From Candidatus Tagabacteria bacterium (GTDB lineage: Bacteria > Patescibacteriota > Minisyncoccia > GCA-002779875), in assembly GCA_963820595.1 (NCBI GenBank), contig CAWGAO010000008.1:9857-73856 (forward strand): DNA of 64,000 nt, in the 5' to 3' direction. Both the position numbers and the translations under genes were made by a program. Positions within the stretch are counted from its first letter, which is position 1. Each line of letters starts with the position of its first letter. This document shows, piece after piece, positions 2,954 through 58,645 of the stretch. The notes beneath the pieces were generated by a model. The model searched no databases, was not told the origin of the DNA, and was given only the letters and a program-made list of their open reading frames with translations.

Positions 2954-3137
2954 AATAGATTTTTTGAATGAGCGAAGTGAATTTTAGAAAATCATCACCC
3001 CGCCCTCTAAGCACAAATAATTCCTTTTAATTTTATTTCTTACATTAAACATCATCTTCGTAATTTCTCCAATTCTTCACGCATAGAGGGCGGGGTTCTC
3101 AAAAAATATATTCACTTCGTTCATTATTTTTTGGAAC
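2954..3137. repeat. bidirectional module: leader-like box facing rplE ATG on - strand and a second leader-like box facing + strand, arms accccgccctctaagcac / gcatagagggcggggt
   Basis: ATTCACT-containing leader on both sides of the arm pair. Confidence 0.6.
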
Positions 3138-3782: not shown

Positions 3783-4154
3783 CTAAACAACCTCCGGCGC
3801 TAAAGAAATAATTTTCGCGTATCCCCGTTCGCGAAGCTCTCTGGGCATGGGCCCAAAAATACGGCCTGCTTTCGGCTCCTGAGTTTTCGCCTCAAGAATT
3901 ATCACGGCATTATCGTCAAAACGCACATACGAACCGTCTTTTCTGCGGTAAGGCTGGCGCTGACGGCAAACTACCGCTCTAAGCACATCTTTTTTCTTCA
4001 CTGCCTTTCTCGGCTCCGCGGATTTCACGGAAACAACCACAATGTCGCCTATGCGGGCATATCGCCTGCGGCTTCCGCCCGGCACTTTAATAACCTGCAC
4101 GAGTTTTGCCCCGCTGTTATCGGCAACACCTACCATTGAACGAGTTTGAATCAT
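3783..4154 (-). CDS. rplN: 50S ribosomal protein L14
   Basis: [24 protein letters not shown]... canonical L14. Confidence 0.9.
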
Positions 4155-4341
4155 GCCAAAATTATATGAACATTAGCGAATAATAATTTTGCGCACCGAG
4201 CACATAATTTATAGCAACCTTTTTATTAAGATGTTCGAAATTTTTACTAAATCTTTTTTTGAAACTTCACTAAATTTTTCATAAAATTATGTGCTCGGTA
4301 AAGGTTTGGCGCCTATATTTTCTCGTCTAAAACTCGAAAAT
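4155..4341 (-). repeat. mosaic intergenic module (leader box ending at rplN ATG; arms accgagcacataatttat / ataaaattatgtgctcggt; hairpin)
   Basis: arm sequence differs from other copies but the two arms still match each other. Confidence 0.65.
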
Positions 4342-4673: not shown

Positions 4674-4862
4674 CTATCGCTCTTTGTTTTTCATTAAAGT
4701 TATAATTCTCGCGATATCTTTTTTTATTTCACGGGCGGCTTTCGTATTTTTGATTTTGCCATGCCCCATCTCAAAACGGAATTTTCTCAAAGCCTCACGC
4801 TTGTCTTTTAGAAGAGCAGCAAGCTCAATTTCGGTTTTTTCTCTTAATTCTTTTATTTTCAT
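4674..4862 (-). CDS. rpmC: 50S ribosomal protein L29
   Basis: MKIKELREKTEIELAALLKDKREALRKFRFE... Confidence 0.85.
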   Translation of the reverse strand: MKIKELREKTEIELAALLKDKREALRKFRFEMGHGKIKNTKAAREIKKDIARIITLMKNKER

Positions 4863-5047
4863 GCCATAATTATATGAACGCTAGTGAATAATAATTTTCG
4901 CACCCCGCCTCTAACGCTTGCGCTCTTTTTATTAAATGATTATCTTGATATTTGCTTCATAATTTTTGTTTAAATTCGTGATAGAGGGCGGGTAAAGGTT
5001 TGGCAACAGAATTTTTCGCCTACGGCTCAAAATTCTGTCCAATTCGC
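4863..5047 (-). repeat. mosaic intergenic module (leader box at rpmC ATG; arms caccccgcctctaacgc / gatagagggcgggt; 3' hairpin)
   Basis: direct reading. Confidence 0.65.
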
Positions 5048-8969: not shown

Positions 8970-10396
8970 ATGGAAAAAAGCAGCCGTATCGAATTACCGA
9001 AAGAAAAAATACCCGTAGCTTGGTACAATATCGTTCCGGATCTTCCCGAATCGCTGCCGCCGCCGAGAGACGAGGAAGCATTGGGAAGATTAGTGAAAGC
9101 CCTTGTCGGCGAATGCCTGAAGCAGGAAATGTCGAATGAAAGATGGATAGCCATCCCGCCCGAACTTATTAAGATTTATGCCGAAATCGGAAGGCCCCGT
9201 CCTCTGACTCAGGGCGAGGAATCTCGAAAAACTCCTCGGCCTTAAGGGTATCGAGCTTTATTTCAAGATGGAAGGCGAAAGCCCGACCGGCAGCCATAAA
9301 CTCAACACCGCCGTTGCCCAAGCATACTTCGCTAAAAAAGCCGGCATCAAAAGGCTGACAACGGAAACGGGCGCCGGCCAATGGGGAACGGCGCTTGCCT
9401 GCGGAGCGAAACTGCAAGATTTGGAATCCACGGTCTATTGGGTGAAATGTGTTTACAAATGGAAAAAGGAAAGAAGAAAATTCATAAAATTTTTCGGGGC
9501 GGAAGTTTTCGCTTCACCCAGTCAAAACACGGAGGCAGGCAGAAAATTTCCTAAAGACCATCCCGGCTCTCTTGCCATCGCGATTTCCGAAGGAATCGAA
9601 GACGCCTTAAGCGACCCGGACGCGAAATATTGCCTTGGCTCGGTGCTTAATCACGTCTTGATGCATCAAACAATCATCGGCCTTGAGACAATAGAACAAC
9701 TCTCAATGATAGACAGGTATCCGGCCGATTATATGATCGCCTGCGTCGGCGGAGGAAGCAATTTCGGAGGCTTCTGTCTTCCGACAATCGGCAAGATTCT
9801 GAAAGAAGGGATAAAAACAAAATGCATTGCCGTCCAGAGCGAGAGTTCGCCCAACCTCATAAAAGGCGTTTATAGATACGACAGGGGAGACCACGCCGAG
9901 CTCACGCCGGAATTAATGATGTACACCCTCGGACATCAATGCGAGATGAAGCCGATAAAGGCTGACGGCCTAAGATATCATGCCGCAGCGCCCATAATCA
10001 GCTCTGCTCAGAAAACTCGGATTCATTGAAGCAGTAAGCTACCCTGCCGATGAAATACGAGTTTTTGAAAGGGCAAAAATTTTCATCGAATCCGAAGGGT
10101 TCCCTCTCGGAACGAAAGATTCGAAAAAGAATATCAAAGAAGCTCTTTTGAGGGCGAAAAAATTTCTTAAAGTGGTCACCGGCACAAGCAATATCCAGGA
10201 AATGTTCGCGGTGAGTAAAGATTTTATAGAAAACAAAATCTTTATTCCGGCGCCGGAATCGGCTTACGCTGTCGCCCACGCGATTGATAAAGCGCTCGAA
10301 TGCAAAAAGGAAAAAAAGAAGGCAGTGATAGTCGCCAATATCAGCGGTCATGGCTTTCTTGATATCGAAGCTTACCGGGAAAAATTAAATCTTTAA
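8970..10396 (+). CDS. trpB: TrpB2-type tryptophan synthase beta-like PLP enzyme, >=2 apparent frameshifts
   Basis: pieces: ...IPVAWYNIVPDLPESLPPP...; ...MEGESPTGSHKLNTAVAQAYFAKKAGIKRLTTETGAGQWG...; C-terminal piece ends ...ISGHGFLDIEAYREKLNL. Confidence 0.7.
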
Positions 10397-11034: not shown

Positions 11035-12218
11035 GATGAGGGAAGTGGTAATAACCGGCGCGGTAAGAACAGCTATCGGTAATTTTCTCGGCGCATTGAG
11101 TTCTTTCAGCGCAACCGAGTTGGGAGGGCTGGTGATAGAAGAGGCGATAAAAAGATCCGGATATCAAAAAAGAGGATGTTGATGAAGTGATTATGGGAAA
11201 CGTCCTTTCAGCCGGACTGGGACAAAATCCGGCTCGCCAAGCGATGATTAAGGCGGGACTTCCAATGTCGGGAGGAGCCCTGACAATAAATAAAGTTTGC
11301 GGCTCCGGCTTGAAAGCTGTTATGCTGGCGGCTCAAGTCATCATGGCAGGAGACGCGGAAGTGATTGTCGCGGGCGGAATGGAAAGCATGAGCCGAACCC
11401 CTTATTATCTGGAAAACGCAAGAACGGGATATCGGCTTGGGAATGGAAAACTAGTGGACGGGATGGTTCATGACGGCCTTTGGGATGTGGTGAACGATTA
11501 TCCTATGGGGTTCACCGCCGAAATACAGTCGAAAAAATTTAACATCAGCCGGGAAGAACAGGACCGATTTGCTTACGAATCAAATCTTCAAGGCGATGAA
11601 GGCCATACGAGAAGGAAAATTCAAGGAAGAAATCCTCCCGCTCTCAATTCCGCGCGGAAAAGGAGAATTGATTTATTTTGAAATCGATGAGGGACCCCGC
11701 GACCCAGACCTCCAAAAGATGGCCAATTAATGTCCGTCTTTAAAGAAGGCGGCGTTGTCACCGCGGCAAACTCCTCTAAAATCAGCGATGGAGCAAGCGC
11801 TCTGGTCGTGATGTCGAAAAAGAAAGCCAAATCTCTGGGGATGAGGCCTATGGCGAAAATCATAGCACAGGCGGCAGCGGGCGTGGAATTGGAAGATGTC
11901 TTGGTCGCTCCGATTCAATCGATTCCGAAAGTTCTCAAAAAGGCGGGGCTATCTATCGAGGAGATCGATCTTTTTGAAATCAACGAGGCTTTTTCCGCGA
12001 CAACTTTGGCCGTCATCAAAACCTTGGGCATTGATAAAAACGGGTGAATATTCATGGCGGCGCCATCGCATCTGGGCCATCCAATCGGCGCCAGCGGCGC
12101 GAGAATTCTGACCACATTGCTTTACGCGATGAAAGATGGCGGAGCGAAAAGAGGAATGGTTTCTCTTTGTTTGGGCGGCGCGGAAGCCGTAAGTTTGATT
12201 GTCGAACAGATACCATAA
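11035..12218 (+). CDS. acetyl-CoA C-acetyltransferase (thiolase), at least 4 apparent single-nt frameshifts
   Basis: [21 protein letters not shown]...; ...[22 protein letters not shown]...; ...NVNGGAIA([13 protein letters not shown])... recovered only after frame changes. Confidence 0.75.
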
Positions 12219-12268: not shown

Positions 12269-12442
12269 ATGGAAGAGCTACGAAATCGTTTCGACGGCAA
12301 ACCTTGGCTTGGTTATGATGAAACAGAAAATCGTCGGTCAGGGGCCACGGTAAGTATTTTAATGTTGTTGCTGGTTTTTGTGGGGTTTGAGTATTTTCTG
12401 TGTGTAATAAATGAATTTCTTAAATTTTGTTTGACGAGATAA
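12269..12442 (+). CDS. small membrane protein (57 aa)
   Basis: SD aaaggggg + ATG; C-terminal hydrophobic helix; followed by terminator. Confidence 0.4.
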   Translation: MEELRNRFDGKPWLGYDETENRRSGATVSILMLLLVFVGFEYFLCVINEFLKFCLTR

Positions 12443-12454
12443 AAACCTTTAAAG

Positions 12455-12482
12455 CCCTTCGGGGCTTTTTGTTTTGGGGAAT
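12455..12482 (+). terminator. terminator aaagcccttcggggcttttt (copy 1 of 3)
   Basis: same stem-loop reused at 13047 and 14590. Confidence 0.65.
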
Positions 12483-12644
12483 TTAATTTGGGCGACTTAG
12501 CGGAAAGAGCTGGAACTCATTATTTCCTTCAATGCCCTCTTAGAACTTGACAAGAACTTTTGGCTTAATATAATTCATTTGAATCACGATAAGAGGCTAT
12601 CCAAAGGGTTTCGTCCCACGGCAATGCCTCTTTTTTTTATCTTG

Positions 12645-12700
12645 ACTCCCGGCTGTCAAATTGCTAGGAATAACTGAGAAATTTCTTTGAAATACGGAGG
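12645..12700 (+). promoter_or_regulatory. P2 conserved promoter/5'UTR box
   Basis: cttgactcccggctgtcaaattgctaggaataactgagaaatttctttgaaatacggagg. Confidence 0.5.
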
Positions 12701-12704
12701 CATC

Positions 12705-13034
12705 GTGAGAGCAAGAAAAACGACAAAGAAAGTTTCAGTCCGTAAGTCAGGAATAGCAGGCAGGGGTGTTTTTGCGGGAGAGGATATTAAAAAGGGAGAA
12801 TTTATTTTCAAAGCAGGTGATAATTTTGATGTTTTCGTTTTTTTAAATCACTCATGCCGTCCCAACGCGGAATTGATAAGGCAGAGCGAAAGCGCGTTAT
12901 GCGACAAACTTTTTGCCCGACGCAATATAAAAGCCAGAAAAGAAATAACTTTTGATTACAGAAAAACGCGGTGGAGTCATTATTATGACGAGATAGAAGA
13001 AAAAAGCGGCTGTTTTTGTGGCAGATGTAAATAA
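12705..13034 (+). CDS. SET-domain protein (putative protein-lysine methyltransferase), GTG start
   Basis: NHSCRPN motif, ITFDY, and C-terminal CFCGRC post-SET-like Cys cluster. Confidence 0.7.
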   Translation: MRARKTTKKVSVRKSGIAGRGVFAGEDIKKGEFIFKAGDNFDVFVFLNHSCRPNAELIRQSESALCDKLFARRNIKARKEITFDYRKTRWSHYYDEIEEKSGCFCGRCK

Positions 13035-13259
13035 AAAACCGTTCAAAAGCCCTTCGGGGCTTTTTGCTTTTGAGAATTTAATTTGGGTCGCATAGTAGAG
13101 GACGTTAGAACTGTAATCCAGCGACAGCAGGGGTATATTTATATCCCAGATTTAAAACCGACAATGATGAAGATATAACCTATCCTACCCCGCTACTAAC
13201 TATTTCAAAAGGACGGGGTTCGTGATTGATTTTTTAATTAAAGGCTCTACACTTTGGAT

Positions 13260-13883
13260 ATGAAAACATACGCCTTCATAGATGCCTCAAATCTTTTTTA
13301 CGGCGGCGAGAAAAGTCTCGGTTGGAAAATAGACTATAAGAAACTTTTGGAATATCTAAAAGAGAAATACAGCGTTAGCCACGCTTTTTATTTTGGTGGC
13401 GTAGAGATACATAATTTTGAATATGATTACCAAAAAAACGATACTGTTCCGCTCAACGAACTTGAAAAACACCTCAAAACTTTGATTAGTAATGAAGGGT
13501 CAAAGTTAAACGAAGCCGAGCTCTTACTTATCGGACGGCATTTACAAAGAGTTCGCTTTTACCAACGCCTCAATAGCTTTGGCTATAAATTATACCTGAA
13601 ACCAGTTAAACTCTATGACCAAGAGGACGGCACGACTAAGAGAAAAGCTAATTGTGATGTCGATATGGCTTTCCACCTTATGAAGGAAAAAGATAACTTT
13701 AATAGTGCTGTCATTTTATCTGGGGACGGAGATTTCTTGCCAGTGTTAAAATATCTCAAAACTAATAGTAAAGATATGATTATATTGGGTAGGAGCGAGA
13801 GGGCAGCTAAAGAAATTAAGCAATTTGCAGGGAGCAATTTCAAAGACTTTCAATATCTTAGAGAACGCCTCAAAATGGCCTAA
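13260..13883 (+). CDS. NYN-domain (LabA-like) protein, probable RNase
   Basis: AFIDASNLFYGG N-terminal motif and ILSGDGDFLPVL motif typical of NYN/LabA. Confidence 0.65.
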   Translation: MKTYAFIDASNLFYGGEKSLGWKIDYKKLLEYLKEKYSVSHAFYFGGVEIHNFEYDYQKNDTVPLNELEKHLKTLISNEGSKLNEAELLLIGRHLQRVRFYQRLNSFGYKLYLKPVKLYDQEDGTTKRKANCDVDMAFHLMKEKDNFNSAVILSGDGDFLPVLKYLKTNSKDMIILGRSERAAKEIKQFAGSNFKDFQYLRERLKMA

Positions 13884-14145
13884 AAAAACGAAAAGCACCC
13901 ATTTAGGATGCTTCTCACGTTTAGTATCTCCACTATAGCAAGCTGGTTTTTATTGTCAATATCCACTTTTACCCTACCCCGCTACTCACTATTTCTTCGG
14001 AGAAAAACGGGGTGGGCTACGGGACGCATTCAGAACCCTGGATTGGATACAGGTTAGGAAAGAGTTGGATGATTTCGCCTTGCATTTTGAACAACAATTT
14101 GCTATAAATAACTGAGAAAATTCCTTGAAAAGGAGGAAAAGATTG

Positions 14146-14562
14146 AAAGGAAAATATTTTTTGCCTTTTCGCATATCTAAAAATGTAAGCGTTGCTTCGG
14201 CTCCTTACCATAAGAAAGCGAGAAATATGAAACATTGCGTAGATTTTTCTATGCCAGAAGGCACATCTATTTTGGCGTCACGCGAAGGAAGGGTTATTCA
14301 TTGTGAAAGCAGATTTAATAAAAGTTATTCTTCTCCAAAGTATGCCGATAGATGCAATCGTATCATAATTGTTCACGCGGATGGCGATGAATCCGTTTAT
14401 GCTCATCTGAAATGTCATTCTTTGAAGGTAAAAATTGGTGAGTTTGTAAAAAAAGGACAGTTGTTGGGTTTGAGCGGACAAACCGGCTATGCGACTTATC
14501 CGCATTTACATTTCGGAGTTTACGATAAGAACGGGAAAAATAGAAAAATTGATTTCAGATAA
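14146..14562 (+). CDS. M23 (LytM-type) peptidase domain protein
   Basis: HADGDESVYAHL and GQTGYATYPHLHFGVY motifs. Confidence 0.65.
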   Translation, partial: KGKYFLPFRISKNVSVASAPYHKKARNMKHCVDFSMPEGTSILASREGRVIHCESRFNKSYSSPKYADRCNRIIIVHADGDESVYAHLKCHSLKVKIGEFVKKGQLLGLSGQTGYATYPHLHFGVYDKNGKNRKIDFR

Positions 14563-14603: not shown

Positions 14604-14792
14604 GAGAATTTAGCCAGCCCCGCACAACAGTTTGCGGGATTTTTCACAGCAAGCCGCTTCGCGGGAAAGGGATGCGGCTATTCGCCGCCCGCGGCTTGCG
14701 AAACTTTTTATATTTTTCGTGTAATGTAATTTTTCAAAAAGAATGCACGGCAAACTGTATGCGGGGCACTCAATTTTGTAAACAGAAAATCG
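14604..14792. repeat. GC-rich palindrome-rich insertion splitting the duplicated boundary sequence
   Basis: gcaagccgc...gcggcttgc and ccccgcacaac...gcggggcac inverted repeats; flanks are continuous with copy at 13066-13110. Confidence 0.45.
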
Positions 14793-14976
14793 CATTCCGA
14801 AGAACGCTATTTTTTGAGCAAAATTGGTGGGTCGCATAGTAGAGGACGTTAGAACTGTAATCCAGAATCAAAATGAGTATGTTTATATACCGGATTTAAT
14901 TCCGCAATTGACAGCAACTCTTTAAGATGCTACGAATTTCTTTGGAAATAAATTCCTTGAAAAGGAGAAAAAAATA

Positions 14977-15291: not shown

Positions 15292-15402
15292 AAGATTTTG
15301 CAGTTCGCAATGGCTTAAGCGTAAATCCTTATAAAATAAAAATTATAACAAAAAGCCGCCTGGTTTTCCCGAGCGGTTTTTTTATTTTTCCAAAATCGCT
15401 TG

Positions 15403-15477
15403 GGTGCTCGATCGGACTTGAACCGACAACCACCAGGTCCACAACCTGGAGCTCTAACCAATTGAGCTACGAGCACC
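15403..15477 (-). tRNA. tRNA-His (GTG) with extra 5' G(-1)
   Basis: rc gives G-GTGCTCGTAGCTCAATTGGTTAGAGCTCCAGGTTGTGGACCTGG...GGTTCAAGTCCGATCGAGCAC; anticodon loop TTGTGGA. Confidence 0.85.
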
Positions 15478-17640: not shown

Positions 17641-17731
17641 GTGCTATTCTTTGGCCAGAAAAATTAAGCTGTTTGATCTTTGTAAAGCATAAAAACCTCA
17701 AAATAAAATATCAAGATTGGAGGGATTTAAG

Positions 17732-18877
17732 ATGGATTTTGAATTAAATGAAGAACAAAAACTGATCCAAAACAGCGTCAGAGATTTTGTAAAAAAGGAA
17801 ATCGCGCCCATTGCGGACGAAATCGACAAGAAAGACGAATTTCCGAGCGAAATAGTGCAAAAGATGGCTGGCCTGGGAATACTAAGTATCCCTTTACCGG
17901 AAGAATTTGGCGGAATGGGCGGCGACATCTTAAGTTATGTTTTAGCCCTCGAAGAAATATCTAAAGTTTCTGTGGCGGTAGCAATTACCGTTGCCGTCCA
18001 CACATCTCTTGTTTCCGCTCCGATTAACGAATTCGGAAACCGGAACCAAAAAGAAAAATATCTTGTGCCGCTGGCAAAAGGCGAAAAATTGGGGGCGTTT
18101 CTGCCTGACAGAACCTAATGTCGGCTCTGACGTCGGCTCCATAGAAACAACCGCCGAATTCAAAAAGACATGACCATTACCTCTTGAACGGAACAAAGAT
18201 TTTCATAACAAACGGCGGAGTGGCCGAAACTTATCTTGTTTTTGCCGCAACCGACAACCAGGAAAAAAAGCCGAAAAGATTGAGCGCCTTCATTATCGAA
18301 AAAGGGATGCCGGGGTTTTCTTTCGGCACCCGATACGAAAAAATGGGTTGGCGAGGCTCTGAAACCCGCGAGCTTATTTTTGAAGACGTGAAAATTCCTC
18401 TTGAGAATTTGTTGGGCCAGCGAGGCGACGGATTTCTCGAGGCGATGAAAATTTTGGACGGCGGGAGAATCAGCGTCGCGGCATTATCTCTCGGTTTGGC
18501 CGGCGGAGCCTTGGAAGCCGCCTTAAAATACGCAAAAACACGGCGGCAATTTGGGAAAACTCTTGCCGAATTTCAGGCAGTCCAAATTTTGCTTGCCGAT
18601 ACGGCGACGGAGATAGAAGCTGCCAGATATTTAATCTGGAAAGCTATTCAGCTTAAAGAAAAAAACAAACCGTATCGTAAAGAAGCGGCGATGGCAAAAC
18701 TTTTCAGCTCGGAAATGGCCGTAAGAACAGTTTCAAAAGCTCTCCAAATCCACGGAGGCTCCGGATACATGAAGGATTCTCCGGTGGAACGATTCTACGG
18801 GATGCTAAGGTGCTGGAAATTGGTGAAGGCACTTCGGAAATCCTTCGGTTGCTAATTGCCAGTGAATTAAGAAATTG
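17732..18877 (+). CDS. acyl-CoA dehydrogenase, 3 apparent single-nt frameshifts
   Basis: ...GAF/CLTEPNVGSDVGS... and ...ERFY/RDAKVLEIGEGTSEILRLLIASELRN recovered by frame changes; one clearly a TTT/TT homopolymer. Confidence 0.75.
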
Positions 18878-22159: not shown

Positions 22160-22285
22160 GTAGTCCCGATAATTCTAAATTTGAATTATCGAGGATCCTC
22201 GATTTTCTAGCGAAAATCGGGATGAAATGGACCCCGAAGTATAAACCTTCGGTTTAACTACGGGGCAGGTATCACTTAAAAATAA
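22160..22285 (+). ncRNA. structured leader upstream of tRNA-Arg (three-way stem arrangement, shares aactacggggcaggt with repeat family at 1440/58380)
   Basis: outer stem cccctgtagt/actacgggg enclosing two hairpins; preceded by TTGTCA-16-TAAAAT. Confidence 0.35.
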
Positions 22286-23903: not shown

Positions 23904-24044
23904 AAGAACGCGGGCTGGAGTCCCGACGCGCTTCGCGGTCGGGGTCCCGACTGAAACGTCGGGATATGATGGCATCCCCGAAGGAGTCGCCTTCGGCGAC
24001 CCTACGGGGAAAATCGGGACACGCCACGCCCGCCCACCTTTTAT

Positions 24045-41408: not shown

Positions 41409-41502
41409 TGAATTCGCCCGCGATTTTGAGCGAAGCGAAGAATCGCGGTTACAAAATGCGAAAACATTAAATTATTAGTCGTTTAACTCCTTAATTTTTG
41501 GC
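41409..41502 (+). repeat. minimal module: palindromic unit (GAGCGAAGCGA loop) + AT-rich leader ending at rpsG ATG, without arm pair
   Basis: cccgcgattttgagcgaagcgaagaatcgcgg ... taactccttaatttttggcATG. Confidence 0.6.
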
Positions 41503-41970
41503 ATGAGAAGAAAAATCAGAGTAAAATACAAATTAAATCCAGACCCGCTTTACGACTCGAAAAAAATCGAGAAATTTACCAATTACCTGATGTGGAAAGG
41601 AGAAAAATCCGTTGCTCGTGAAATCGTCTATCAAACTTTTGAAGAAATAAAAAAGAAAATAAAAGCAGATCCGATTGCGATTTTCGAAAAAGCGATTGAA
41701 AATGTTTCACCTATGATTGCAGTGCGCTCCCGAAGAGTCGGAGGCGCCACCTATCAGGTTCCTAGAGAAATTCCTCCTGAAAAACGCATAGGCTTCGCAA
41801 TGCGCTGGATAATTCTGGCGGCGCGGTCAAAAAAAGGCAAAAATATGTCCTATCGGCTTTCGGAAGAACTTATTGCGGCTTCTAAAAACGAAGGAGCAGC
41901 CGTTAAAAAAAGAGAAGATACTCATAAAATGGCCGAGGCTAATCGCGCTTTCGCTCATTTTGCTTGGTAA
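41503..41970 (+). CDS. rpsG: 30S ribosomal protein S7
   Basis: canonical S7. Confidence 0.9.
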   Translation: MRRKIRVKYKLNPDPLYDSKKIEKFTNYLMWKGEKSVAREIVYQTFEEIKKKIKADPIAIFEKAIENVSPMIAVRSRRVGGATYQVPREIPPEKRIGFAMRWIILAARSKKGKNMSYRLSEELIAASKNEGAAVKKREDTHKMAEANRAFAHFAW

Positions 41971-42171
41971 TGACTTTGCTCGCTATTTGGAGCGTTAGCG
42001 ACAAATTGCGGCCGCAAAACATTACCCGCCTAAGTTTTTGCGAAATAATTAAAATATGAAAAATCTAAAAAAGAAAAATTTTCAAAAATTTAATTCGTCT
42101 TTGGAGTATACCCGCAAAAATTTGGGCGGGTGTTCAAAAATTATAGTCATTAACATTCCTTAATTTTTAGC
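41971..42171 (+). repeat. mosaic module (palindromic unit, arms cgcctaagtttttgcg / cgcaaaaatttgggcg, leader GGTGTTCAAAAATTATAGTCATTAACATTCCTTAATTTTTAGC-ATG)
   Basis: direct reading. Confidence 0.65.
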
Positions 42172-44244
42172 ATGGCACGCGAATACCCTATAGAAAAAAC
42201 AAGGGATATAGGCATTATTGCCCATATTGATGCCGGTAAAACTACTGTTTCCGAGCGGGTGCTTTTTTATACCGGCGTTTCTTATAAAATCGGCGAAGTG
42301 CACGAAGGAGCGGCGATAATGGATTGGATGGAACAAGAACGGGAAAGAGGCATTACTATTACGGCCGCCGCCACGACCTGTTTCTGGCTAAATCACCGCA
42401 TCAATATTATCGACACGCCCGGCCATATCGACTTCACGGTCGAGGTACAGCGCTCATTGCGCGTCTTAGACGGCGGAGTCGTGGTCTTTGACGGCGTGGC
42501 CGGCGTTGAACCCCAATCCGAAACCGTCTGGCGACAGGCGGATAAATACAAAGTCCCGCGCATTTGCTTCGTCAATAAAATGGACCGGATGGGCGCCAGT
42601 TTTGAAAAAAGTTTTAATTCCATTCTCGAACGGCTTACTCCAAACGCCGTTGCATTAAATATTCCCATCGGCGCTGAATCGGAATTTGAAGGCGTTATCG
42701 ATCTTTATAAGATGAAAGCAATTTATTTCGAAGACGAACACGGAGAAAAAATAGTGGAAAAAGAAATACCGGAAAAATTAAAAGCGGACGCGGAAAAATG
42801 GCGCAAGCTGATGATCGAAAAAATCGCCGAGACCGACGACCATCTTCTTGAACAATATTTGAATAATCAGGAGCCGCCGGTTGAAGAATTAAAAAAAGCG
42901 TTAAGAAAAGCTTGCCTCGAATATGCTCTTGTTCCTGTTTATTGCGGTTCGGCTTTGAAAAACAAAGGCGTACAACCCATGCTCGACGGCGTTGTTGATT
43001 ATCTTCCGAGCCCGGTTGACCTGCCAGCCGTCAAAGGCATCGAACCTAATTCACACAAAGAAACCACTCGCGAAGCAAAAGATGACTCTCCTTTTACCGC
43101 TCTTGCTTTCAAACTTCAAACCGACCTTTACGTTGGGCAACTCACCTATTTTAGAGTCTATTCCGGCAATCTTGACGCGGGTTCCTATGTGTACAATGCC
43201 ACTACCGACACGAAAGAAAGAATCGGGCGAATCCTGCGGATGCACGCCAACCACCGCGAAGAAGTAAAAGAAGTCTTTGCCGGCGACATCGCCGCGACCG
43301 TAGGCCTTAAAAACACCCACACCGGCGACACGCTCTGCGATCCGGACCATCCGATAGTTTTGGAAAAAATCGAATTTCCGGAACCCGTCGTTTCTCTCCG
43401 CATCGAACCGAAAACAAAAGCCGATCAGGAAAAAATGGGTCTGGCTTTAAAGCGCCTTTCCGACGAGGACCCGACCTTCAGGATTAAATCTGATCCTGAA
43501 ACTATGGAAACCATTATCTCGGGCATGGGAGAACTTCATCTGGAAATCATCGTCGATAGAATGAAAAGAGAATTTAAAGTGGACGCAGGCGTCGGAAAAC
43601 CCCAAGTTGCCTACAAAGAAACCATAACCGCCGAAGGCGAGGCCGAAGGAAAATATATCCGCCAATCGGGTGGAAGAGGCCAATATGGTCACGTCCGCAT
43701 CAAGACAGAACCTCTTGAAAGAGGCAAAGGTTTTGAATTTATCAATTCCATAAGAGGAGGCATCATCCCCCAGGAATTTATTCCGGCCGTCGAGAAAGGA
43801 GTGAAAGAAGCGTTGGACCGCGGAGTCGTGGCGGGTTTCCCGATAGTGGACCTTTCGATCGAACTTTATGACGGCTCCTATCACGAAGTCGACTCTTCGG
43901 AAATGGCTTTCAAGATCGCCGGCTCCATGGCTTTGCAGGAAGGCGTCAGGCGCTCCAAACCGATTCTGCTCGAACCGATTATGAAAGTGGAAGTCGTTAC
44001 CCCGGAAAAGTTTTTAGGAGACGTTGTCGGAGATTTGAACTCGAAACGCGGCCACATCTTGAACATGACCGACAGGTTCAACCTTAAAGTCATCGACGCG
44101 AAAGTGCCACTTTCGGAAATGTTCGGCTACGTCACTTCTTTGCGCTCAATGACGGAAGGCCGGGCCACTTATACCATGGAATTCGACCGCTACGAGCGGG
44201 TTCCGGAAAATATCGCCCAATTAATTAAAGAAGGGAAAAAATAA
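42172..44244 (+). CDS. fusA: elongation factor G (690 aa, intact)
   Basis: [17 protein letters not shown], full-length domains. Confidence 0.95.
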
Positions 44245-44488
44245 TGGCTTGGCCCGCGATTTGGAGTGAAGCGACAAATTGCGGTTGCCAAATATTACCC
44301 CGCCCTTTTGGGCGCGAGATGTTATAATAAAACTATGGATATATTAAGTTTAAAAATTATAAAACGGCAATGCGCTTTAGTTATAACGGGATGCGCCTAT
44401 TCGGCGCCCGCGCATTGCGGAATTGAGTATGGCGCCAAAAGGGCGGGGTGCTCAAAAATTATAGTCGCTTAACTCCTTAATTTTTGGC
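44245..44488 (+). repeat. mosaic module (palindromic unit GGAGTGAAGCGA loop; arms ccccgcccttttgggcg / cgccaaaagggcgggg; leader ending at ATG 44489)
   Basis: direct reading. Confidence 0.65.
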
Positions 44489-44587
44489 ATGTCTGACGAC
44501 CAAGAACAAAAAGAAAAACTTTTCTCCGAAGAGGCCTTAGAAGACGATTTGGAAATCGAAGCAGATGTAGAAAGTTTGCCACTTTAA
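44489..44587 (+). CDS. small acidic peptide (32 aa) with its own module leader
   Basis: MSDDQEQKEKLFSEEALEDDLEIEADVESLPL; leader identical in type to rpsG/fusA leaders. Confidence 0.3.
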   Translation: MSDDQEQKEKLFSEEALEDDLEIEADVESLPL

Positions 44588-58379: not shown

Positions 58380-58645
58380 CCCCGGCACCAATTTTGCGTG
58401 ATATTTCACGGCGAAGCGCTCCCCGAAGTATCCGCCTCCGGCGGAACTACGGGGCAGGTCGCCCTAACTCTAGTGGCTACTTGCCCCGCATAATCGCGTA
58501 GCGATTTGTGCGGGGTTCGCCGCACGCGCTTCGCAAAAATTGTTCTTATTTCCCGCCTATAAAGCGCCTAGCAACAAAAAAGTGGCAAAATTGATGCGGG
58601 GTGCCCAAAAATTATAGTCGTTTCACTCCTTAATTTTTGGCAAAT
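58380..58645 (+). repeat. degenerate module (no ATG at leader end) whose spacer carries copy B of the GC-rich structured repeat
   Basis: arms accccggcaccaattttgcg / gcaaaattgatgcggggtg; leader ends ggcaaata instead of ggcatg. Confidence 0.55.

Follow-up and report, generated by a model that had tools for sequence, protein, structure and literature searches.

The question raised by this locus is what a SET-domain protein of only 109 residues, to which the nearest full-length relatives add about 55 more, can still do, and how its gene came to reside in the genome of a Candidatus Tagabacteria bacterium. SET is the main lysine-methylating fold of eukaryotic chromatin. The gene, here called mini-SET, lies in a stretch of 64,000 nucleotides of contig CAWGAO010000008.1 (assembly GCA_963820595.1), which is referred to below as the window; the coordinates of the features are collected in Table 1. 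An earlier reading made from the letters of this stretch (the sequence-only reading) had proposed a bacterial SET-domain protein encoded by an open reading frame (ORF) of 110 amino acids. The coordinates of this ORF were correct, while its length proved to be 109 codons plus the stop codon. The motifs on which the proposal rested, NHSCRPN, ITFDY and a CxCxxC tail, could all be read directly from the sequence, together well beyond what chance would give, and the hidden Markov model search that had been named as the refuting test gave 53.5 bits for the window protein with Pfam SET (PF00856; E 3.5e-14, in two stretches), compared with a gathering score of 22.4 bits. A phmmer search of all PDB chains returned only SET lysine methyltransferases, with MLL2, NSD2 and MLL1 at the top (E about 4e-6). 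An exact-sequence look-up did not find the protein on record as a called gene. The GTG start codon lined up with the ATG or GTG starts of all four close homologues in the alignment and was therefore preferred over an alternative upstream TTG at position 12687, the counterpart of which is used in the NCBI annotation of a relative. The relative MDP3052058.1 (115 amino acids) is named 'SET domain-containing protein' in NCBI.

Judged from its sequence, the most unusual feature of the window protein is the absent I-SET insert, which went unnoticed in the sequence-only reading. In an alignment with bacterial SET proteins of 165 to 190 amino acids, which are the nearest full-length relatives (33-38% identity), about 35 residues were absent between GEFIF and FLNHSC, and the C-terminal tail of about 50 residues following the cysteine cluster was absent as well. 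A profile of 24 short-form proteins matched the MLL1 SET domain with an E value of 9e-18, in two pieces that left out chain residues 48-79. This skipped segment of about 32 residues contains motif II (EYxG) with the active-site tyrosine, plus I-SET. At the position of the motif-II tyrosine the window protein reads F-K-A-G, and the homologues have K, R or T. In solved SET enzymes the groove for the substrate peptide is formed between I-SET and post-SET, and in all ternary complexes, that of vSET (119 amino acids) included, the first I-SET strand makes paired backbone hydrogen bonds to the substrate lysine (PMC2797608).

Twelve residues were invariant or nearly so in the 24 mini-SETs. G21, N48, H49, C51, E80, C103 and C105 were invariant and T82, D84, Y85 and C108 nearly invariant; F23 also belonged to this set, and G19 was nearly invariant among the 12 sequences of a smaller alignment. 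We take the G21 region to be the cofactor-binding turn, N48/H49 to be the NH pair that hydrogen-bonds S-adenosylmethionine (SAM), Y85 to be the catalytic-site tyrosine and the four cysteines to be the post-SET zinc site. In the window protein three post-SET cysteines (C103, C105 and C108) were present together with the cysteine of NHSC (C51), as in post-SET regions of the SUV39/MLL/SET2 type, and C51 is predicted to be the fourth zinc ligand beside the other three. Residue 83 is a phenylalanine at the position of the Phe/Tyr switch; Phe at this switch allows multiple methylation in DIM-5 and G9a. The switch data for G9a are found in PMC2797608.

The predicted structure was in agreement with a SET domain. 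AlphaFold2 gave a mean predicted local distance difference test score (pLDDT) of 78.5 with a shallow alignment and of 89.4 with the mini-SET alignment, the latter with a predicted template modelling score (pTM) of 0.81. In both models the domain was compact and rich in beta structure, with a single helix near the C-terminus (residues 91-100); in the model with the higher score the linker region contained only a helix of four residues (41-44). Foldseek matched the models to the SET domains of MLL1, EZH1/2, NSD1-3 and SETD2 with a probability of 1.0 and TMq values of about 0.60-0.69, so that structure prediction, the further check suggested in the sequence-only reading, also pointed to a SET fold, in which the C-terminal segment would be threaded through the motif-III loop as a pseudoknot. 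By profile, motifs and predicted fold the window protein is a member of the SET superfamily, but it lacks I-SET and the motif-II tyrosine, which all SET methyltransferases of known structure possess. As these two are missing, it should not be assumed to work exactly like the characterised SET methyltransferases.

The short form is kept by purifying selection. Close short-form proteins of 109 to 120 amino acids were found in the window, in contig L001 (GCA_030692745.1), in L084 and L085 from two NCBI metagenome assemblies and in L002 from ENA; a sixth had 42% identity. The pairwise ratios of nonsynonymous to synonymous substitution rates (dN/dS; Nei-Gojobori) among the five close genes were 0.12-0.28. 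A HMMER profile search of 1.84 billion cluster representatives (clusters at 50% identity) gave 1,638 clusters with E values up to 1e-3. Of the 150 that scored best, about two dozen of 90-138 amino acids matched the whole short profile in one stretch, with the same absent I-SET, and many had DYRxTRW followed by CxCxxC. These mini-SET clusters are rare metagenomic singletons. Two on longer contigs were in bacterial chromosomal settings, one after ComEC and the other beside sucCD, with no common neighbour.

SET modules were also found in viruses. The Caudoviricetes sequence MW202744.1 encodes a protein of 253 amino acids with a SET domain at its C-terminus, in which I-SET is reduced to about 12 residues. 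A Marseillevirus SET of 100 amino acids and SETs of uncultured Caudovirales were among the top structural matches in BFVD, and IMG/VR contigs contained SET modules of about 40% identity within proteins of 720-746 amino acids. PHROG matches were weak, one being a family of 100 positions without an assigned function. Among the matches listed for GTDB species representatives there was no close relative, and the best had 32% identity. The statement in the sequence-only reading that bacterial SET proteins are rare did not hold. In addition to the 1,638 clusters, two short peptide patterns detected at least 389 SET loci in GTDB species representatives, many of them in genomes of DPANN and of the Candidate Phyla Radiation (CPR), and more than 500 bacterial genomes with SET proteins had already been counted in a 2014 review (PMC3980110).

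The best match of the window protein in both sequence and fold was the MLL/SET1 (KMT2) family, e.g. human MLL1 (PDB 2W5Y/5F5E). Both have GxG, (F)xNHSCxPN, ExTxDY and a post-SET cysteine triplet that pairs with the cysteine of NHSC. In contrast to MLL1, the window protein stands alone, with neither an N-flank nor a multi-domain protein or complex around it, it lacks the approximately 32 residues with motif II and I-SET, and the identity is only 22-25%. The post-SET spacing is CxCx2C in the window protein but CxCx4C in MLL1 and the longer relatives. Single-domain SETs of bacteria and archaea of about 130-190 amino acids (Go1-SET of Methanosarcina, cpnSET/NUE of Chlamydia and the CPR/DPANN homologues P0006-P0012) share the motifs and the cysteine cluster at 33-38% identity, but they keep I-SET (about 35 residues) and the tail at the C-terminus (about 50 residues), neither of which is found in the window protein. 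Those that were studied methylate the chromatin proteins of their own cell or host histones (PMC3980110). The viral enzyme vSET (PBCV-1 A612L) is of similar size and has the same N-terminal strand and GxG region, with residues 9-35 matched. It acts as a dimer and is not known to possess a post-SET cysteine cluster. In contrast to the window protein, which has a Cys4 post-SET and no I-SET, vSET keeps the I-SET strand that hydrogen-bonds the substrate lysine (PMC2797608). The same layout without I-SET was seen in mini-SETs of 90-138 amino acids from metagenomes, phages and giant viruses, among them P0138, P0139, P0141, P0146, the Marseillevirus LCMAC101 protein A0A481YSP5 and phrog_28741. These have 28-46% identity to the window protein and are uncharacterised, rare singletons in diverse chromosomal contexts.

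The gene is a transcription unit of its own, consisting of a putative promoter, a Shine-Dalgarno sequence, the ORF and a terminator, and it was recently moved between related genomes. Upstream of the ORF only the TTGAC and TGyTA boxes were conserved in the alignment of homologous contigs, and the spacer varied; the putative promoter was not reported by a simple consensus scan. The terminator had a folding energy of -12 kcal/mol. Homology began at 12677, 12679 or 12680 in the four contigs L001, L002, L084 and L085 and ended at 13071, except in L085, where it continued to 13155 through the downstream repeat. The left edge of the shared block would correspond to the transcription start. The flanks of the block were unrelated among the contigs, the neighbour of the SET gene being a homologue of window positions 52867-53067 in L084 and of 34762-35097 in contig L003. 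The number of synonymous substitutions per synonymous site (dS) between the window and L001 was 0.32 for the SET gene, whereas the seven core genes of the flanks (L5, S8, S14, L14, L24, Zincin and deacetylase) had values of 1.0-2.4, which shows that the unit was exchanged between the lineages long after their divergence. The GC content at third codon positions (GC3) was 34% in the SET gene, 52% in the gene of elongation factor G (EF-G), 49% in that of ribosomal protein L5 and 40% in the deacetylase gene. The location in an accessory cassette, as given in the sequence-only reading, is supported by the different neighbours in every related contig, the low GC3 and a dS far below that of the core genes.

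Two mechanisms of transfer were considered and rejected. An integron gene cassette is a promoterless ORF with an attC site (an imperfect inverted repeat of at least 57 nt) and an adjacent integron integrase, whereas the SET unit appears to bring a promoter-like sequence with it and is closed by a simple GC hairpin of 20 nt and a T-run, which is not attC. No integrase-sized recombinase was present among the ORFs scanned in the variable island around the gene, which were a part of its ORFs. A site-specific core repeat was discarded because the boundary motif TGAGAAWTTY occurs once, compared with 2.4 occurrences expected. Our guess is that the unit was transferred by recombination via the shared promoter and terminator modules after DNA uptake.

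With a probability of roughly 55%, we regard the window protein as an active cytoplasmic SAM-dependent protein-lysine methyltransferase, and residue 83 suggests that the enzyme would be able to add more than one methyl group. SAM would be bound between the GRG turn, N48/H49 and the post-SET region, and zinc on C51, C103, C105 and C108 would close the post-SET region over the cofactor. Y85 and F83 would form the sides of a lysine channel wide enough for multiple methylation. The wall otherwise provided by I-SET may be replaced by helix 91-100 together with the invariant RKTRW segment, by another subunit or by a folded substrate. Most probably the enzyme acts on a protein of its own cell. Chromatin proteins of the own cell are methylated by cpnSET (Hc1) and Go1-SET (MC1-alpha) (PMC3980110); these precedents would suggest a basic nucleic-acid-binding protein as the target.

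Several points weigh against an active methyltransferase. As the I-SET strand and its hydrogen bonds to the lysine are absent, the canonical mode of substrate binding is impossible, and without this strand and the motif-II tyrosine the activity may be weak, dependent on a partner or lost. The mini-SET cluster P0139 has a phenylalanine instead of the catalytic-site tyrosine. The isoelectric point of the window protein itself is 9.7, which speaks against a simple electrostatic attraction to basic histone-like tails and weakens the guess of a basic target. In the contexts examined there was also no conserved neighbour gene that would point to a substrate; a conserved operon partner was found in none of the eight contexts (six of the short form and two of other mini-SETs).

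The missing segments would also be expected if the protein were a SET-like module without catalysis, a binder of SAM, peptide or nucleic acid that has kept fold and zinc site but lost the enzyme function. This is supported by the loss of I-SET, whose contacts with the lysine are universal in solved complexes (PMC2797608), and of the motif-II tyrosine, by the very basic character of the window protein, and by the existence of inactive SET domains such as MLL5 (PMC5094779). We nevertheless consider it improbable, as the residues conserved across the mini-SETs extend beyond the fold core to those for cofactor binding and catalysis (NH, Y85 and G21), and purifying selection acts on these cofactor and catalytic residues. 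Far less probable still is a truncated pseudogene of a normal SET gene of about 165 amino acids. The broken thiolase, TrpB-like and acyl-CoA dehydrogenase genes nearby would fit such a remnant, as would the missing residues. The short architecture, however, recurs in about two dozen more clusters and in five independent contigs, with identities as low as 42%, the dN/dS ratios are low, the start codon, Shine-Dalgarno sequence and terminator are intact and conserved, and the predicted fold is confident and compact. The thiolase gene just upstream, by contrast, is in five colinear fragments in different frames, so that the region evidently tolerates frame disruption in a gene that is not needed. 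For these reasons the pseudogene was rejected and is effectively refuted.

It is also unlikely that the gene serves in a virus-host or inter-genome conflict, i.e. as a phage-derived or defence-island gene whose product would modify a protein of phage or host by methylation and so prevent or escape infection. Compact SET modules do occur in phages and giant viruses (MW202744.1 and the IMG/VR, BFVD and weak PHROG matches above), the mobile unit lies in a tRNA-flanked variable island with a NYN nuclease that weakly matches PADLOC HEC-09/NYN, and the island of L001 carries a ParE/YafQ toxin pair. The SET protein itself, however, had no PADLOC match, the island contained no integrase or phage structural gene, and neither NYN nor M23 nor another gene was linked to the SET gene in a conserved manner. 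Viral relatives have at most 41% identity and are thus distant, have no cysteine cluster and are mostly domains of large proteins; a phage origin of this SET gene was rejected since only such distant viral SETs were found, mostly inside proteins of 720-746 amino acids. The sequence-only reading had proposed a candidate effector or chromatin modifier. As an effector, the protein would be secreted or injected and would methylate proteins of a host organism, e.g. histones if the host is archaeal or eukaryotic. CPR bacteria are generally thought to be episymbiotic, the genome is of this type, and the SET gene is accessory, mobile and low in GC. NUE of Chlamydia and RomA/LegAS4 of Legionella are effectors (PMC3980110). 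On the other hand, the N-terminus of the window protein is basic and hydrophilic without a signal-peptide-like segment (the maximum hydropathy over 15 residues was 1.18, at residue 33), and the protein consists of the catalytic core only, with no targeting, ankyrin or nuclear-localisation-type extra domain. No secretion genes were linked to it in the six short-form or the two other mini-SET contexts; a non-classical signal may be present. Canonical SETs are moreover common in free-living bacteria, and the hosts of Parcubacteria need not possess histones. The effector proposal was therefore not supported, and we regard it as quite improbable. An active enzyme acting inside its own cell is the reading that we prefer.

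The genome belongs to the Parcubacteria part of CPR/Patescibacteria, as follows from the EF-G of the window (42172-44241), which was 86% identical to that of Candidatus Tagabacteria and 77% identical to that of Giovannonibacteria. This agrees with the reduced genome assumed in the sequence-only reading. L001 is syntenic, with the ribosomal-protein genes, Zincin_1, the trypsin-like gene, tRNA-His, polysaccharide deacetylase and the CCA-adding enzyme in the same order and 70-83% nucleotide identity between the syntenic genes. The stretch between the trypsin-like gene (at about 7800) and tRNA-His was wholly different in the two. In the window this island contains an ORF of 342 amino acids, TrpB-like and thiolase fragments, orf57, the SET gene, NYN, M23 and an ORF of 104 amino acids. 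In L001 it contains HIT, the ParE/YafQ toxin pair, an ORF of 177 amino acids and the SET gene, which there directly adjoins tRNA-His. Both neighbours named in the sequence-only reading, NYN and M23, are present (Table 1).

Other genes of the island and its surroundings were also inspected. The M23 peptidase is a bare catalytic domain of 145 amino acids with a basic N-terminus, in which no obvious signal peptide was seen on inspection; among its best matches were the M23 domains of phage endolysins and tape-measure proteins, and also bacterial MepM/ShyA. The fragmented thiolase gene extends over 11036-12218 (+). The PALP/TrpB-like gene (9268-10396, +) is seemingly fragmented, with a Pfam match in the first piece only, and the acyl-CoA dehydrogenase gene (17717-18855, +) is split in two. 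These three genes had no counterpart at the syntenic position of L001 and a GC content of 46-50%, which is higher than in the island genes. They have the look of metabolic genes that this CPR genome acquired recently and that are now decaying. The small orf57 (57 amino acids; 12269-12442, +) has its own leader and terminator and no family match. Its dS between the window and L001, where it lies about 2 kb from the SET gene, was 0.21, and it is another recently exchanged single-gene unit.

Repeated and structured elements were frequent around the SET gene, and direct repeats lie between the units. The copies of a 67-nt repeat bracket the SET unit. The two copies of the exact 35-nt repeat, which belongs to an 84-nt repeat with 82% identity, bracket NYN and M23, and the 35-nt element was also found 3' of the SET gene in L085. 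An insertion or a duplication could have left it as a scar. The SET terminator and this repeat are only four bases apart, compared with about 220 nt after the M23 terminator. These approximately 220 nt (14605-14826, +), located between the M23 terminator and the 35-nt repeat, are relatively GC-rich and look like a small insertion. A tRNA fragment or known RNA as the source of the repeated intergenic element was rejected, since ARAGORN and Rfam gave only tRNA-His, even at E up to 1. About 65 nt before the SET start codon, at 12547-12640 (+), there is a sigma-70 consensus without any mismatch (TTGACA, 16 nt, TATAAT; 12 of 12 positions), and after it comes a hairpin with U8 (-17.2 kcal/mol, z -2.1). 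This element could represent a short transcript or an attenuator; it was not conserved upstream of the SET gene in L001, L084 and L085. A 26-nt leader, TAyCCTACCCCGCTACTmACTATTTC, precedes both NYN (13181-13206) and M23 (13970-13995) on the + strand; it can pair with a downstream CGGGGT and folds no better than shuffled sequence.

Elsewhere in the window, a conserved element of about 50 nt, GGGCGGGGTGCTCAAAAATTAT...TTTTTGGCATG, lies immediately before the ATG in ribosomal-protein genes and in several others and leaves no room for a Shine-Dalgarno sequence. Possibly it serves this lineage as a promoter of mRNAs with no leader or almost none. Hairpin-like repeats CCCCGAAG...CTACGGGG were located at 22232-22270, 23976-24014 and 58421-58459 (+), the former two just 5' of tRNA-Arg (22287) and tRNA-Pro (24045).

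Table 1. Positions of the mini-SET gene, its motifs and signals, and other features of the window.
Feature	Position	Strand	Basis or remark
Mini-SET coding sequence	12705-13034	+	GTG start 12705-12707, TAA stop 13032-13034; 109 codons plus stop
Shine-Dalgarno sequence GGAGG	12696-12700	+	4 bases 5' of GTG; kept in L001, L002, L084 and L085
G19-R20-G21, SET motif I, presumed cofactor-binding turn	12759-12767	+	Aligns with HGRGLF of MLL1
KAGDNFDVFV, residues 36-45, 10-residue linker	12810-12839	+	Replaces motif II (EYxGE) and I-SET insert
NHSCRPN, residues 48-54, motif III	12846-12866	+	N48, H49 and C51 invariant in 24 mini-SETs
EITFDY, residues 80-85, motif IV	12942-12959	+	Aligns with ELTYDY of MLL1
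C103-F-C105-G-R-C108, shortened post-SET CxCx2C	13011-13028	+	Aligns with MLL1 post-SET CNCGAKKC
Putative promoter: TTGACT, 17-nt spacer, extended -10-like TGCTAGGAAT	12642-12671	+	Inferred from conserved TTGAC and TGyTA columns
Intrinsic terminator AAAAGCCCTTCGGGGCTTTT followed by T-run	13045-13074	+	Terminator scan; conserved in 4 of 4 homologous contigs
Only block shared with L001, L002, L084 and L085; mobile unit	12677-13071	+	BLASTN boundaries; from about 20 bases before Shine-Dalgarno sequence to terminator
67-nt direct repeat, left copy (terminator plus GAATTTAATTTGGG...)	12451-12517	+	78% identical to copy at 13046-13112
Exact 35-nt repeat GGGTCGCATAGTAGAGGACGTTAGAACTGTAATCC	13085-13119 and 14829-14863	+	Two exact matches, zero expected
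NYN-domain protein	13254-13883	+	E 1.9e-18
Peptidase_M23	14125-14562	+	E 6.5e-21
tRNA-His(GTG), right anchor of variable island	15402-15476	-	ARAGORN and Rfam
About 50-nt element, genes on - strand	373-431, 961-1019, 4152-4210, 4860-4918	-	
About 50-nt element, genes on + strand	3090-3136, 41457-41503, 42125-42171, 44443-44489, 58596-58642	+	

The call of a SET domain as such is not new, because bacterial SETs are common and a relative is already annotated. New as far as searched are the recognition of a class of I-SET-less, Cys4-capped mini-SETs and the evidence that the gene travels as a single transcription unit in CPR bacteria. In the literature searched, which was incomplete, no paper mentioning both 'SET domain' and 'Patescibacteria' and no description of I-SET-less SET enzymes was found. 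A bolder and rather doubtful proposal is that the mini-SETs, with about 105 amino acids and a Cys4 post-SET, are active and the smallest SET enzymes known, that they bind their substrate in a novel manner via DYRKTRW and the post-SET helix, a dimer or the substrate itself, and that they circulate between genomes of CPR bacteria as autonomous promoter-gene-terminator units, possibly as a weapon or shield in conflicts of symbiont, host and phage.

Substrate recognition by SET enzymes has so far been understood wholly via structures in which I-SET forms a wall of the groove. If natural selection maintains a SET core that lacks I-SET, this core would show how small the catalytic unit of the fold can be, would bear on the proposed prokaryotic origin of the SET domain and would offer a very small scaffold for engineering. 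Should the protein prove to be inactive or to be a common modifier with a housekeeping role, no more than a routine domain annotation is left. For the biology of CPR bacteria, the gene would add a probable protein-modifying enzyme to the accessory pool, and the contrast in dS is a clean case of single transcription units exchanged between related ultra-small genomes.

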